Assembly (NCBI GenBank): GCA_052139735.1 | Contig: JBKQWB010000003.1 | Span: 27,528 to 91,527 of the forward strand | Length of the DNA: 64,000 nucleotides | From: Smithella sp. | GTDB lineage: Bacteria; Desulfobacterota; Syntrophia; Syntrophales; Smithellaceae | Direction of reading: 5' to 3' | In this document: positions 43,171-56,797 of the stretch, one piece after another | How the letters are laid out: each line of letters opens with the position of its first letter | Numbering within the stretch: the stretch's first letter is position 1 | Position numbers and translations under genes: made by a program | The notes under the pieces: generated by a model | What the model saw: the letters and a program-made list of their open reading frames with translations, nothing else | The model's database searches: none | Told to the model about the DNA's origin: nothing

Positions 43171-43470
43171 TTATTTAACATAAACCGGTTTCCCGTTTAT
43201 TTTATTTCCTCCTTTTTCGAGTTTGCTGATAATTGTATCAAGGGCGGTGATTTTGTCATCAAAAGTTATTGTTAACAAATCCTTGTTCCCGAATTGATAT
43301 TTTATTACGCCTTTGGTTTCTTTCAGGATAGCACCTATCCTGTGTGAAGCGCCTCAAGCGGCACAACCGGGGACGGTTAACTGAACAATTCTTTCTTCAG
43401 CCACAGCCACACTTAAAAAAGCCGCAAGTATTGTTAAAATTATAAATGTAAAAAATGTTTTTTTCATCAT
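43171..43470 (-). CDS. Candidate selenoprotein: secreted MerP/HMA-like metal-binding protein with in-frame UGA (codon 39, 43354-43356)
   Basis: Hand translation gives MMKKTFFTFIILTILAAFLSVAVAEERIVQLTVPGCAA[UGA]GASHRIGAILKETKGVIKYQFGNKDLLTITFDDKITALDTIISKLEKGGNKINGKPVYVK. It has a signal peptide, an HMA-type beta-alpha-beta-beta-alpha-beta pattern, and the UGA exactly where the second Cys of GMTCxxC sits. GGAG lies upstream of the ATGs. selC is present in the same window. Confidence 0.6.
43324..43342 (-). promoter_or_regulatory. SECIS-like hairpin downstream of the in-frame UGA
   Basis: RNA reads UGA-GGCGCUUCACA-CAGGAUAG-GUG-CUAUCCUG: a perfect 8-bp stem starting 11 nt after the UGA, with a G/U-containing apical loop. 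UUC/GAA flanks could extend it across an internal loop. Confidence 0.5.
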
Positions 43471-43601
43471 CCGCTCCATGAATGCTTTTTGTTTTATATT
43501 AACAACAATCTTTATCGAAATGCAATTATAATTTACAATTGACAGGCATCCTTAAATTTGTGATAGACAACAATAATATTGTCGAAAAGATATAAGAAAC
43601 T

Positions 43602-51214: not shown

Positions 51215-54200
51215 TTATTGGGCAAGCATCTTTAATAACAACATGGCTTGTTCTAATATTTCCTTTCCGTGAATGGCCGGCGCGGGCACATACAATTTAT
51301 AATCCGGCGTAAAACGTAAATTCTTAATTTTCTTGTGATAAAGCGCGATAATCTTTGCGGGATCAACCGGAGAATTATCCCGGAAGAAAATATATAAATA
51401 TTTGCCGTCATAGCCCATCTTTTTACCCTTCAATGGCTTAAGACAATTTCTTATACTGATGACCTGCAAAAGATTACCCACGGATGCGGGCAAATCCCCG
51501 TAACAATCCTGCAGCTCACTTTTAATCTGATTAATGTCTTCATCATTTCCGGCCAGAGAGATTCTTTTATACAAGACCAGCCGTTGATGAACATCCTGAA
51601 CATACTCTTCGGGAATAAAAGCAGAAATTCCCAACTGAATTTCAGGCAGTAATTCCTCTTCACCAATTTCTTCTCCCTTAATTTCACGAACCGTCTTTTC
51701 CATTAATTCGGTATAAAGTTCATAACCAACGGCGGAAATATGACCTGACTGGGAAATGCCTAACAAATTTCCTCCGCCGCGGATTTCCAGATCATTATAC
51801 GCTATCCTGAATCCGGACCCGGGTTCGGAAAATTCTTTAATGACCTGTAATCTTTTCATGGCTTCGCGGGAAAGCATCGCTCCCCGGGGCAATAGCAGGT
51901 AAGCAAAAGCTTCCTGACTGGAACGTCCCACGCGGCCTCGTATCTGATAGAGTTGCGCCAATCCAAACTTTTCGGCGCGGTTAATAATTATTGTATTGGC
52001 GCTGGGAATGTCCAGACCTGAGCCGATAATGGTGGTGCAAACCAGAACGTCACATTCATGCCGGATAAATCCGGTCATAGCTTTTTCAATTTCCGCGGAT
52101 TTCATTTGACCATGGACCACCCCGACTCTCGCCTGTGGTACCAGACGCTGCACAAGACGGGCCATCGAATAAATTGAGCGCACCCGGTCATGAACAAAAA
52201 ATACCTGTCCCCCGCGCGCCAGCTCTTTCTCTATAGCAGCTTTAATCGCGTCCTCATCGAATTCCAGCACATACGTTTTTATGGACACACGATCTTCCGG
52301 CGGCGTATTAATAATTGATAAATCTCTGATGCCGACAAGCGACAGATGAAGCGTGCGCGGAATCGGTGTTGCCGAGAGCGTGAGTACATCAACGAGCGCG
52401 CGCATTTTTTTTAATTTTTCTTTGTGCGCCACGCCGAAGCGCTGTTCTTCATCAATGATTACCAGCCCCAGATCTTTAAATTCAACGTCTTTTTGGATCA
52501 AGCGATGCGTCCCGACGACAATATCCACTTTTTGATTCTTTACCTCTTCCACAATTTTCTTTTGTTCGGCAGCGCTTTTAAAACGATTCAACACCTCAAC
52601 ACGCACCGGAAAATCCCGGAAACGGCGGGAAAAAGTCTGATAATGTTGTTCTGCCAGAATAGTCGTGGGCACTAAAACGGCAACCTGCTTGCCGTCCATC
52701 ACAGCCCGAAAAGCCGACCTGATTGCGACTTCCGTTTTACCGAAACCGGCATCGCCGCAAATCAACCTGTCCATCGGTTTGGAATCATCCATGTCCAGAT
52801 GAATATCTTCAATCGCTTTGTCCTGATCCGGTGTTTCTTCAAATTCAAAAGTGGAGCAGAATTCCTCGTAAATCCGGTCCGGCGGCGCAAACGATTTTCT
52901 TTCCAGTGCTTCGCGGGCGGCATAAATGGCGACCAGTTCCTCGGCATATTCACGTACTGATTTTTTAACCTTTTCTTTTACCGCTTCCCATGAGGTTCCG
53001 CCCATTTTATCAATCTTCGGCACATAACCGTCGGCTCCGAGATAGCGTTGTATTTTTTCCAGAGAATTAACGGGAATGTAGAGTTTGTCGCCATCCAGAT
53101 ACTCAATGATTAAAAAATCGTTTTCGATCCTGCCCACGGTAATTTTTTTCAATCCGCGATAAATACCGATGCCAAAATCAGTATGAACAATAAAATCGTC
53201 TTCTTTTAAATCACCAAAGGATTTAATAAAGTAACCTTCCCGCGCCGGCCTGAGACGGCGGCGGGGAGCTTTTTTGACAAATATTTCTTCTTCGCTTAAA
53301 AATACCAGCTTCATTGCCGGCACAATAAAACTGGTAGAAATTTCCCCTTCCAGCAAAACAAGTTGAGGATTCCCCTGGCTGCGGTCAATAATTTCGAGAA
53401 CTGAATCCCGGGAAGATGAAATCTGCACCGGCAAATCACAAGACAAAAGCAGATGCTTCATCCGTTGGATGGCTTCCGGAGCCGGACAAAATAAAAAAAT
53501 CAACATGCCTTCGGAAAGCCACAATTTAATTTTTTCCGCGGTCCACCGTAAGGAAGCATCTTCCTTAATCTCACCAGTAAGTAATTCTCCTGTACAAAGA
53601 TATTGGTCAGTTTCAAAAGTCACTGTGGTTGCCGCATCATCTTTTTCCTGGTCTAGATAGAGGCCGGCGAGAGAAATTTGTCCAAACCTGTCCAGACCTG
53701 CCGCGATACGAGTTAGATCGACATAAGTGTTTTCTTTTTCCAGATAAAATTTGCCGCTGTTTTTAGTTTTAAACAACAACTTGTCAATATGAAACCCCGC
53801 ATTCCCGATGGCCTGATTCACGGCCAGCGGATTATCCAGAATGACTAAAGTGCTTTTCGAAAGATAATCAAAAAGACTCGACAATTTATCGCGTGAAAGT
53901 CCGCTGTTACTATCGTATGATTCATAAAACAGCGGTAAAAATATCGGATTGATGGAATTGGTCAAACCGTTCTTCAGGGAATCCACCAGACGGTTGCGAA
54001 TCTCGCGGGGCAGAGAAAGATCGTCGGCACGCCGCCTGATATTTCGGACCGCCAGTTCTAAATTTGAGGGATTGATGATTAACTCACTGGCAGGCCCGAC
54101 TATGAAAGCATCCGCCGAGCTTATGGAACGCTGAGAGGAACCGTCAAACGTCCGGATGGATTCGATATCATCGCCGAACATTTCCAGACGCAGCGGATTA

Positions 54201-54772
54201 TTTTCAGCCGGAGGGAATATATCAATAATGCTGCCCCGGATGCTGAACTCCCCTTTTTCCTCTACCAGGCTTTCTCTTTTATAGCCGCCGGAAATCAGGC
54301 GGGAGCAAAAGTCATCTCTGTTGACAGCATCACCCGCTGAAATGATATGCAGATAATTATTGAATTGGGCAAAAGGCGTCACTTTTTGCATTAAAGCGAT
54401 TACGGAAGTAACCACAATTATTTTTGTTTTTATTTGCAGATTAGTAAGGACTTCCAGGCGGGTTAATTCTTCCTCCTTCTGCAGGGCAAACATGTCGATT
54501 GTCAAAAAATCGAGCGACGGATAATGAAATACGGATTCTTCCCCCAGAAACAAAGACAAATCCCGCGCGAAAGCCGCCGCTTCTTTCTCTTCGGGGCAAA
54601 CAATAAGCAGCGGCCTTTCCAGCCGTTCAAAAAGAAGAGATACTAAAAATGGACGAGCCGCGCCATTAAGTCCGCTGACATCAACCTTTGCCGAACCTTC
54701 ACTGATTTGCCGGATAAGATTATGGAGATGTTCAGTACCTTTATTAATTTTTTTTGTGATAAGTTTTCGCAC
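51215..54772 (-). CDS. mfd: Transcription-repair coupling factor
   Basis: 1185-aa ORF with a CarD-like domain, superfamily-2 helicase motifs ([18 protein letters not shown]) and a TRCF C-terminal domain. GTG start. Confidence 0.97.
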
Positions 54773-55106: not shown

Positions 55107-55204
55107 GGAAGTGCCAAGGTCACTGGTGGGCCTCCCGGACTTCAAATCCGGTGTTGGGCGCTAAAACCGTCCAGGGTGGGTTCGATTCCCATGCACTTCC
55201 GCCA
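55107..55204 (+). tRNA. selC: tRNA-Sec (selenocysteine tRNA, anticodon UCA), CCA end encoded
   Basis: 98 nt with an 8-bp acceptor stem GGAAGTGC/GCACTTCC, anticodon loop CTTCAAA, a long variable arm, and G-CCA. It closely parallels E. coli selC at GGAAG..., GGACTTCAAATCC, GGTTCGAYTCC and CTTCCGCCA. Confidence 0.95.
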
Positions 55205-55437: not shown

Positions 55438-55486
55438 TTAGCCAAACGAGTACGTGAGCGAAACGCAGGATGGATGGAGTTTTACT

Positions 55487-56797
55487 ATGACGACGCCGTT
55501 GAAAGGGCTTCCTCCGCAGATGTTGCTGTATCTCCTACTGCAACTGGTTTTCCTCCTTGGAACGGCGCACCTTCTCGGGGAACTGGCACGGCGCTGGAAG
55601 CAGCCCGCGGTACTTGGAAACATCTTGGCCGGCGTGCTGCTTGGACCTTCAGTGCTGGGGCATTGGTTTCCTGCACTGCAGTTGGCAATCTTCCCGCACG
55701 ACCAGAACCAGGGCAATTTGCTGGCGGCCGTCACTTGGATTGGGTTGATCTTGCTGCTCTTATCGACAGGGTTGGAGACGGACCTTGACTTAATCGTACG
55801 CAAATGGCGCGTCTCCGTTTCTGCCTCAGCGGGTGGGATCATCGTTCCGTTTATCTCCGGCTTCCTCCTGGGACACTTCATTCCCGAAACTTTTCTGGCG
55901 CATCCAAACGACCGCCTGGCGTTTTCCCTGTTTCTCGCGGTAGCAATGTGTATTTCATCTCTGCCGGTAATTGCCAGCATTATGAGGGAGATAAAGGCGA
56001 TCCCGCTAAGTATCAGGCAGATCGCCTTGGCGGCCGGCATGATGGATGACACGGTTGGATGGACTCTTCTTGCGATCGTGTCGGGACTGTTCTTGAGCGG
56101 CCGGTTCGACAACCTGATTGTCGCTCGCATGGTTGGCATTGCTATGCTGTTTCTGCTGGTCAGTTACGTCGCAGGCAGGCCACTGGTACGCTGGATCGTG
56201 ACCCGGACCAATAGCGTGTCGCCTCACCCTTCCGCGCAGCTTGCGATACTCATTTTTTTGGGAATCATTGGCAGTTCGATCACTCACTCGTTGGGATTGG
56301 AAGCGACGCTGGGTGCATTTGTGGTGGGAATCCTGGCGAGCACGGTCCCGAGCATTCGCAAAGACACGGCCCAATCACTCGATCTTGTAGTGACGTCGTT
56401 TCTGGGGCCCATCTACTTTGGGCTGGCCGGCTTACGCTTCGATTTATGGGGCCTACTTCATTGGAATACTTTCCTCATCGCCTTGGCGGTTATAGCGATC
56501 GCCTGTTTTGGCAAGATCGTCGGCGTCTATCTTGCGACCTGGGCTGGAGGGGTTTCCCACTGGAAGCGATTGGCTCTGGGCTTTGGTATGAACGCACGCG
56601 GTGCTGTGGAGATCATCGTGGCAACTCAGGGCTATTCCATGGGCCTGCTCAATTTGCAGGTATACTCGATGATCGTGCTAATGGCGGTGGTCACGTCCGT
56701 GATGGCTGCCCCCTTGATGAAATGGGCAGTATCCCATTTTGACGCCGGCAGCAGTGAAGTCGAACTGCTTCCCGGCGAGGGGACTGGCTCGAAGTGA
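55487..56797 (+). CDS. Cation:proton antiporter (CPA2 / Kef-NapA-like membrane domain)
   Basis: Multi-TM ORF with N-terminal LLQLVFLLGTAHLLGELARRWKQPAVLGNILAGVLLGPSVLG, typical of Na+/H+-exchanger family proteins. The ATG at 55487 follows GGAG; the ORF-track start at 55454 is GTG. Confidence 0.85.
   Translation: MTTPLKGLPPQMLLYLLLQLVFLLGTAHLLGELARRWKQPAVLGNILAGVLLGPSVLGHWFPALQLAIFPHDQNQGNLLAAVTWIGLILLLLSTGLETDLDLIVRKWRVSVSASAGGIIVPFISGFLLGHFIPETFLAHPNDRLAFSLFLAVAMCISSLPVIASIMREIKAIPLSIRQIALAAGMMDDTVGWTLLAIVSGLFLSGRFDNLIVARMVGIAMLFLLVSYVAGRPLVRWIVTRTNSVSPHPSAQLAILIFLGIIGSSITHSLGLEATLGAFVVGILASTVPSIRKDTAQSLDLVVTSFLGPIYFGLAGLRFDLWGLLHWNTFLIALAVIAIACFGKIVGVYLATWAGGVSHWKRLALGFGMNARGAVEIIVATQGYSMGLLNLQVYSMIVLMAVVTSVMAAPLMKWAVSHFDAGSSEVELLPGEGTGSK

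Follow-up and report, generated by a model that had tools for sequence, protein, structure and literature searches.

The candidate gene and its features

The DNA analysed here is a stretch of 64,000 nucleotides (nt) of contig JBKQWB010000003.1 from Smithella sp., referred to throughout as the window, and the element in question is a short gene on its minus strand, lying between manC and maf, that carries an in-frame UGA predicted to be read as selenocysteine (Sec). A mechanical list of open reading frames (ORFs) gives two stubs alone in the manC-maf gap, at 43354..43479 (41 residues) and at 43171..43278 (35 residues). Translation of minus-strand positions 43479..43171 yields a single frame of 102 sense codons whose sole internal stop is the TGA at 43356..43354, as had been described in the initial annotation of this DNA; it reads MERMMKKTFFTFIILTILAAFLSVAVAEERIVQLTVPGCAA up to the TGA and GASHRIGAILKETKGVIKYQFGNKDLLTITFDDKITALDTIISKLEKGGNKINGKPVYVK between the TGA and the final stop. 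The peptide encoded 5' of the TGA consists of a basic and then hydrophobic leader followed by EERIVQLTVPGCAA (RIVQLTVPG-C-A-A), and the 60 sense codons after the TGA encode GASHRIGAILKETKGV, then LLTITFDDKITALDTIISKLEKGG and finally GKPVYVK, closed by TAA. Scanning the window for other ORFs interrupted by TGA gave no second convincing candidate. The features on which the analysis rests are the following:

43171..43467, minus strand: candidate selenoprotein coding sequence, 98 residues plus the TAA stop, with Sec as residue 38; based on translation and on the frame and C-terminus common to 63 distinct homologues
43354..43356, minus strand: in-frame UGA, read as Sec; TGA in 56 of the 63 distinct homologues, TGC or TGT in 7
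43354..43365, minus strand: C-A-A-U motif, with the Cys codon TGT at 43365..43363 and the Sec codon at 43356..43354, giving Cys35 and Sec38 in P-G-C35-A-A-U38
43399..43467, minus strand: predicted signal peptide of the Sec type, MKKTFFTFIILTILAAFLSVAVA, cleaved between AVA and EERIV, as read from the sequence
43324..43342, minus strand: hairpin resembling a selenocysteine insertion sequence (SECIS), with an 8-bp perfect stem (CAGGAUAG/CUAUCCUG), a GUG loop and an 11-nt spacer at 43353..43343 separating it from the UGA
43474..43477, minus strand: Shine-Dalgarno sequence GGAG, 6 nt 5' of the ATG at 43467; GGAG or GAGG at this spacing in 60 relatives

The frame proposed initially was thus retained, and its start was moved from 43470 to 43467 (MKK...), because an alignment of upstream regions showed both the Shine-Dalgarno sequence and the ATGAAA start to be conserved among 60 relatives; the in-frame ATGs further upstream, at 43470 and 43479, are probably unused. 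All members of the family begin with MKK or MKR, continue with a hydrophobic stretch of 17-20 residues and present a small-x-small site ahead of (E/A)ER, and inspection of the signal peptide found neither a lipobox Cys nor a twin-arginine motif. Since this leader pattern recurs in every member, the protein is very probably exported through the general secretory (Sec) pathway.

Distribution of UGA and Cys codons among homologues

A protein search in which U was replaced by C returned nine clusters. The closest of them (89-95% identity) have a genuine Cys, in the motif PGCVACGASHRIG, and distant metagenome clusters (49-72% identity) show a 'W' at the UGA column that cannot be translated under table 11 and corresponds to TGA in the DNA; these entries come from gene calling with a genetic code that reads TGA as Trp. 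A scan of one genome per species then identified 60 loci, 59 of which come from Smithella, Smithellaceae, Syntrophaceae and other or unclassified deltaproteobacterial metagenome-assembled genomes; a weak partial match in Helicobacteraceae (L071), also among the 60, was excluded. The gene is conserved in about 55 related species.

Among 63 distinct orthologues and paralogues, which stem without exception from assemblies and metagenomes of Smithella, Smithellaceae or Syntrophaceae, the UGA column holds TGA in 56 and a Cys codon (TGC or TGT) in 7, and all of them reach the common C-terminus G-x-P-V-Y-L-K, so the homologues do not end at the UGA, which the initial annotation had named as a possible outcome. 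In the 54 aligned TGA forms the motif Cys is invariant and the TGA is present throughout. Nor is the TGA a sequencing error, or a Cys codon that resequencing would restore, since it recurs across dozens of independent assemblies. At residues that are invariant 3' of the UGA, the identity of the third codon position in the same 54 forms is 0.46 at G+15, 0.56 at D+33, 0.37 at L+45 and 0.57 at P+56. Free third positions at invariant residues are the mark of selection on the protein, which leaves no room for a sequencing error, a pseudogene or a tail that is never translated; the comparison thereby shows the sequence after the UGA to be translated.

The Cys forms fall into about three groups, one made up of the nearest relatives of the window (L003, L004 and L013), one with the motif PGCRPC (L031, L034 and L060) and a third represented by a paralogue (L033). 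Over 5 kb, the DNA of the window is about 96% identical to a genome with Cys (L013) and to a genome with TGA (L012) alike, so that a switch between Sec and Cys can take place between very close relatives. Four genomes carry two copies, and within each genome the copies agree: Cys in L031 and L033, and TGA in L048 and L049, in L020 and L056, and in L024 and L036. Such concordance would be expected if each genome as a whole either can or cannot use Sec. In public sources the TGA forms exist solely as 'hypothetical protein' stubs of 37-41 residues, including the 41-residue stub of the window itself, and the Cys forms are labelled 'copper chaperone CopZ' (Joint Genome Institute), 'mercuric transport protein periplasmic component' or 'hypothetical protein'.

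Several variants of the family were also recorded. Second, diverged copies (L033, L049 and L056) have a one-residue insertion, GG-x-FG-R/M-VG, and lie outside the maf/manC locus; the L033 copy adjoins a phage-type integrase and a sigma-54 activator. A subgroup of seven loci (L036, L038, L057, L058, L062, L068 and L069) combines a PGCFS-U motif with a conserved C-terminal extension (…VYLKAFP-x-x-x-Q-S/L-x). Finally, a protein of 1636 residues (P0015) contains eight separate stretches that match the family profile (E = 1.3e-23) and is presumably a chain of HMA-like repeats.

The hairpin downstream of the UGA

The 8-bp hairpin that had been noticed 11 nt 3' of the UGA was found again at 43342..43324. 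When the 81-nt stretch around it was folded as a single sequence and compared with shuffled sequences, it was no better than chance (z = -1.48); as the hairpin is unremarkable on its own, the weight of the evidence comes from comparison between species. Across 50 distinct sequences, pairing is present in 95.5% of the stem cells and drops to 30-42% once the partner strand is slid by one to three columns. At the outer stem pair, 31 sequences have C-G and 9 have A-U; one sequence (L046) has replaced an internal G-C with A-U through two synonymous, mutually compensating changes, and seven further stem changes give G-U wobbles. RNAalifold independently recovered a core of 5 bp with a GGUNC loop.

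Codon choice within the stem points in the same direction, as can be seen from the 54 aligned TGA forms:

Arg+5: AGG in 50 of 54; for comparison, Arg at -12 is AGA in 41 of 54
Ile+6: ATA in 48 of 54, that is, in all 48 Ile codons; for comparison, other Ile columns favour ATT
Ile+9: ATC in 52 of 54; for comparison, other Ile columns favour ATT

At these three stem codons the third-position identity reaches 0.98-1.0, and residue +8 varies among S, A and T through its loop-side first base alone, its two stem bases being invariant. The folding free energy of the hairpin lies between -5.4 and -10.5 kcal/mol in all 55 distinct TGA forms. In 5 of the 7 Cys forms (L004, L031, L033, L034 and L060) the hairpin has decayed to between -2.4 and -3.7 kcal/mol, the loss in L004 including a synonymous change from AGG to AGA, and the two Cys forms that keep it are near-identical to the window. 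The hairpin, whose persistence in orthologues had been in question, is therefore kept in 55 of 55 distinct TGA forms and degraded in most Cys forms, and the comparison shows conservation at the level of the RNA to be confined to genes with UGA at this codon.

Counted from the U of the UGA, the hairpin occupies nt 15-33, with G23 invariant and U24 present in about 70% of sequences. The E. coli SECIS element lies 11 nt from the UGA and has a conserved G23/U24 (PMC8659212). The present hairpin resembles the fdhF-type element of E. coli in starting 11 nt past the UGA and in its apical G23 and U24, and differs from it in being a perfect helix of 7-8 bp with a loop of 3-5 nt and no bulged U17.

Sec tRNA and genetic code of the window

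The initial annotation had also placed selC 11.6 kb from the gene, and both ARAGORN and Rfam bear this out:

55107..55204, plus strand: selC, tRNA-Sec with anticodon UCA; found by ARAGORN and by Rfam model RF01852 (74.8 bits against a gathering score of 47)

Reading the sequence shows an acceptor stem of 8 bp, G73 as the discriminator base and a long variable arm, a combination that identifies this tRNA as a genuine selC and not as a tRNA-Sec-like tRNA(Cys). The selC gene is solitary, flanked by mfd (51215-54772, minus strand) and by a gene for a Na+/H+ exchanger (55454-56797, plus strand). Elsewhere in the genus, a composite Smithella genome has been reported to contain the complete Sec apparatus together with selC* tRNA(Cys) genes, and related Deltaproteobacteria to carry extra selB copies (PMC5389517); ARAGORN and Rfam detected no selC* gene in the window. 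Of the 51 long ORFs in the window, 9 end at TGA as an ordinary stop, rpoB and uvrA among them, so the genetic code has not been reassigned.

Protein fold and family assignment

In MerP the Hg(II) ion sits between Cys14 and Cys17. The best NCBIfam match for 35 of 35 family members is the MerP model TIGR02052, from profile position 1 and spanning both the signal peptide and the whole domain, with 24-49 bits for members of the family and 61.5 bits for a sister protein (P0025); none of them reaches the cut-off of 92.55. A profile built from the 35 members matched CopA (1p6t, 1e-6) and MerP (1osd, 7.9e-6) among PDB sequences and placed C-x-x-U on Cys14/Cys17 of MerP, an alignment that takes two gaps of two residues each, one ahead of the motif (PG--CsaC against PGmtCSAC) and one behind it. 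The initial claim that the TGA stands exactly at the second Cys of the CxxC motif accordingly holds for the register of the 35-member profile, and 'exactly' requires a gap of two residues relative to MerP. An exhaustive profile search extended to canonical MerP sequences and to the sister group, where P0025 matched the family profile at 2.1e-13 and exceeded the Pfam HMA threshold with 33.4 bits. Two further results were set aside: an earlier search of the PDB with a seven-sequence profile, which had given marginal E-values, an ungapped misalignment of the motif and a spurious match to a designed TIM barrel, was superseded by the 35-member profile, and a match to NCBIfam ExtJ (selenite/tellurite operon) was rejected since it spans the signal peptide alone (residues 1-29).

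An AlphaFold2 model was built on a natural Cys form (P0001) that is 95% identical to the window protein. The predicted domain has the order beta-alpha-beta-beta-alpha-beta, with a predicted local distance difference test score of 86-91. Its Cys falls within the beta1-alpha1 loop, helix 1 opens with the Sec column, and residues 3-20 form an N-terminal helix of low confidence. In a Foldseek search of the PDB the top 33 matches were all HMA domains (HMA7, Atx1, MerP, CopA and CopZ) with a probability of 1.0, and the template modelling scores, normalised to the target, were 0.75-0.87 (0.80 for MerP 1osd). An HMA/MerP-like fold is thus well supported by the model, and the HMA/MerP identity proposed initially stands on the structure model, the Foldseek matches and the profile searches, although not on the Pfam HMA and NCBIfam MerP cut-offs, below which the protein falls.

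The sister group of secreted HMA proteins (P0025, P0027, P0032, P0035, P0041, P0048, P0060 and P0063) carries C-x-C or C-x-'W'. In P0025 (L072:223-531) the DNA shows the 'W' to be a TGA, placed one codon before the UGA position of the Smithellaceae family (PGCV*PG) and followed by the same kind of hairpin, AGGGUAG-GUU-CUAUCCU, displaced by 3 nt; unlike this case, the 'W' of P0027, P0032 and P0043 is known at the protein level. It seems, then, that related secreted HMA proteins may use Sec at another, second position.

Genomic neighbourhood and expression signals

The gene lies in the order uvrA, HD-domain response regulator, yggS, maf, the gene itself, manC and an rlmI-like methyltransferase gene, and is divergent from maf and convergent with manC. 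The same order recurs throughout the family, including loci whose neighbouring genes are only 60-70% identical. Promoter-like elements were located upstream of the start:

43496..43525, minus strand: promoter-like elements, with a -35 box TTGCAT at 43525..43520, a -10 box TAATAT at 43501..43496 and an 18-nt spacer; assigned from the consensus

Across relatives the boxes read TTGCAT or TTGAAT and TATAAT or TAATAT, and they are absent from the listing of a strict promoter scan. The setting among conserved housekeeping genes, with a promoter and Shine-Dalgarno sequence of its own and outside any mer or cop operon, suggests a core gene that Smithellaceae have inherited vertically, and not a resistance cassette.

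Within the maf-gene intergenic region (43520-43570), the block CTGTCAATTGTAAATT is strongly conserved in about 50 loci; its opposite strand carries a perfect TTGACA, which we read as the -35 box of a divergent maf promoter standing back to back with TTGCAT, and the block could also contain a site for a shared regulator. Two upstream palindromes, ACAATATTATTGT and CAATT-N9-AATTG, were rejected, as they are not palindromic in relatives and two back-to-back promoters are the better reading. When metal-handling neighbours were sought around the main locus and the second copies (L033, L039 and L060), genes for a sigma-54 activator, an integrase, a type II secretion system ATPase, MoaE and a NifU/ParA-type protein were seen, and nothing consistent emerged.

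Proposed function and alternative explanations

The conserved UGA, the translated tail, the hairpin, the tRNA-Sec and the HMA fold together support the initial proposal of a periplasmic metal-binding selenoprotein. On the comparative evidence, we consider it highly probable that the locus truly encodes a Sec protein and that its SECIS element is functional. It is also very likely, judging from the sequences and the structure model, that the product is a secreted 98-residue protein of the HMA fold, most similar to MerP, with Sec as the second ligand of the metal-binding loop.

Several observations weigh against this interpretation. The 64-kb window contains no selA, selB or selD, including beside selC, and were selC* present in this genome, Cys could be inserted at the UGA under some conditions. 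The hairpin has no counterpart of the bulged U17 found in E. coli, its stem is mostly invariant with true covariation limited to two pairs, and part of the nucleotide conservation is accounted for by the conservation of the amino acids R-I-G-x-I-L. An Rfam search of the gene region returned no SECIS family and only chance snoRNA-like matches, an outcome that is expected and carries no weight either way. With U read as C, the window protein scores 15 bits (E = 0.034) against Pfam HMA PF00403, whose cut-off is 24.8, and 24 bits against the equivalog model TIGR02052; given these sub-threshold scores, membership of the HMA/MerP family rests on profile, transitive and structural evidence, and the AlphaFold2 model derives from a shallow alignment of seven sequences. 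Next to the gene there is no metal transporter, reductase or metal-sensing regulator, whether at the main locus or at the second copies, so gene context gives the metal-binding role no support.

The proposed mechanism follows established bacterial Sec insertion. As the ribosome nears the UGA, SelB-GTP-Sec-tRNA(Sec) would bind the hairpin, and Sec would be inserted in place of termination. The product would then be exported in a Sec pathway-dependent manner, and cleavage of the signal peptide would leave a mature domain of about 75 residues. Going by the fold and the position of the motif, a soft metal ion, for instance Hg(II) or Cu(I), would be held between the Cys thiolate and the Sec selenolate, an arrangement that would parallel the Cys14/Cys17 site of MerP, and the low pKa of the selenol may allow tighter or faster metal binding. 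Binding of soft metals in the periplasm through Cys35 and Sec38 is the best functional reading by model and analogy, and we regard it as moderately probable. A more specific role can be put forward tentatively, as a possible but rather doubtful refinement: the protein may act in the periplasm as a metallochaperone whose site mixes thiolate and selenolate ligands; encoded by a core chromosomal gene throughout Smithellaceae, it would serve the routine capture or hand-over of soft metals (e.g. Hg, Cu, Cd or Ni), not resistance. Such metals would be either scarce or toxic in its habitat of sulfidic and often acidic peat and sediments.

The main alternative accepts a genuine selenoprotein of the HMA fold and takes C-x-x-U to be a periplasmic thiol/selenol redox centre, acting in disulfide reduction or isomerisation or in the detoxification of peroxide or polysulfide, and not a metal binder. 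Most bacterial selenoproteins with CxxU or UxxC motifs are indeed redox proteins (PMC13188914, PMC2398784), the loop falls two residues short of the canonical GMxCxxC, the gene stands beside no metal-handling gene, and MerP itself has been crystallised in an oxidised form (title of PDB 1osd). However, the fold is that of HMA and not thioredoxin-like, the close structural and sequence neighbours are all metal binders, and the motif occupies the metal-binding position of HMA domains, so that we judge a redox role to be unlikely. Far more improbable is that the UGA is recoded otherwise, or additionally, as Cys through a selC* tRNA(Cys) and a SelB-type factor, or by near-cognate read-through as Trp or Cys. 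The selC* genes of the composite Smithella genome and the extra selB copies of related Deltaproteobacteria (PMC5389517) lend this idea some substance, and the seven natural Cys forms indicate that Cys is tolerated at the position; the tRNA of the window is nevertheless a genuine selC by its G73, its 8-bp acceptor stem, its long variable arm and its score of 74.8 bits, selC* is missing from the window, and 55 distinct genes maintain the TGA together with a costly hairpin when a single mutation would yield Cys, which argues that the inserted residue is not Cys. That the TGA is a true stop (through pseudogenisation, nonsense mutation or sequencing error), or that a short peptide alone is made and the hairpin is a terminator or attenuator, can be dismissed, for although gene callers and public databases treat the locus in this way (the 41-residue stub and the similar deposited stubs of 37-38 residues) and the closest relatives, at about 96% nucleotide identity, have TGC, this explanation is already contradicted by the comparative sequence data, with TGA in the same column of 56 distinct genes from independent assemblies, 60 downstream codons under purifying selection on amino acids with free third positions, a stop at the same G-x-P-V-Y-L-K end in all forms, and a hairpin that has no U-tract and lies inside the conserved frame.

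The gene adds a well-supported and previously unannotated selenoprotein family to the bacterial selenoproteome, carried by syntrophic Smithellaceae, which are important in methanogenic peat, in fens and in hydrocarbon degradation. It also provides a clean comparative case of a SECIS element that is frozen at synonymous sites under UGA and erodes once the codon has become Cys. If the metallochaperone role is true, this would be the first MerP-type protein with selenium as a metal ligand, and the Sec/Cys pairs at about 96% genome identity, with decay of the SECIS element after each switch, would form a compact natural system for studying what Sec gains over Cys in metal binding. The finding leaves the general understanding of selenoproteins unchanged, and we infer the function of the family.

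Comparison with known systems

HMA-type selenoproteins are already catalogued, and Sec in metal sites of this type is established. Selenoprotein catalogues list a MerT-type transporter, a UxxC cation ATPase, a small UxxU metal-binding protein and MbdU (PMC2398784, PMC9312934, PMC13188914), and a table of 2008 based on Global Ocean Sampling data includes a two-sequence 'MerP' entry with no motif stated (PMC2398784). The CxxU family described here is absent from the table of the 2026 review (PMC13188914), and no description of it was found in the literature on Smithella selenocysteine and on HMA-domain selenoproteins. It also comes near no cut-off of the models of catalogued HMA-type selenoproteins, which were taken from NCBIfam release 20.0, a release that contains NF045683 as well as NF041115.

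Among the closest catalogued families is NF041115 (UxxU_metal_bind), named as a 'putative mercuric reductase' (UxxU) in the reviews of 2022 and 2026 (PMC9312934, PMC13188914). It resembles the Smithellaceae family in being a small HMA-type protein with Sec in place of a metal-binding Cys, and weak matches to it occur in 10 of the 35 members; the two differ in that the motif is UxxU there, with two Sec residues, and CxxU here. Scores against NF041115 range from 18.7 to 31.9 bits in the proteins checked, the sister protein P0025 being the highest, against a cut-off of 95, and the window protein gives no match at E <= 1.

MerP (TIGR02052; PDB 1afi and 1osd) shares with the Smithellaceae protein the combination of a signal peptide and a single HMA domain, the sequence V-P-G...C-x-x-C/U followed by a helix, and the V/I-T-F-D-D strand. 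The Smithellaceae protein differs in its loop, which is PG-CxxU as against PGMTCxxC and therefore two residues shorter, in having Sec as the second Cys, in its conserved C-terminal G-x-P-V-Y-L-K, in its TIGR02052 scores of 24-61 bits, under the cut-off of 92.55, and in lying outside a mer operon, with no merT, merA or merR nearby. With the HMA domains of CopZ/Atx1 and of the N-terminus of CopA (PF00403) it shares the fold and the position of the motif, but those domains are cytoplasmic and have no signal peptide.

Sec is likewise found in heavy-metal transport proteins, namely the cation-transporting P-type ATPase with a UxxC motif and the selenoproteins of NF045683, a MerT/CopZ fusion-like model with a cut-off of 375 bits that one of the 35 members matches (E = 0.0046) and against which P0025 scores 36.4 bits. 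Those proteins are membrane transporters or fusions, with Sec first in the ATPase motif, whereas the Smithellaceae protein is a free secreted domain with Sec second and lacks the MerT membrane domain of NF045683. The use of Sec as a heavy-metal ligand would in this way be extended to a free periplasmic MerP-like domain and to the second position of the motif.

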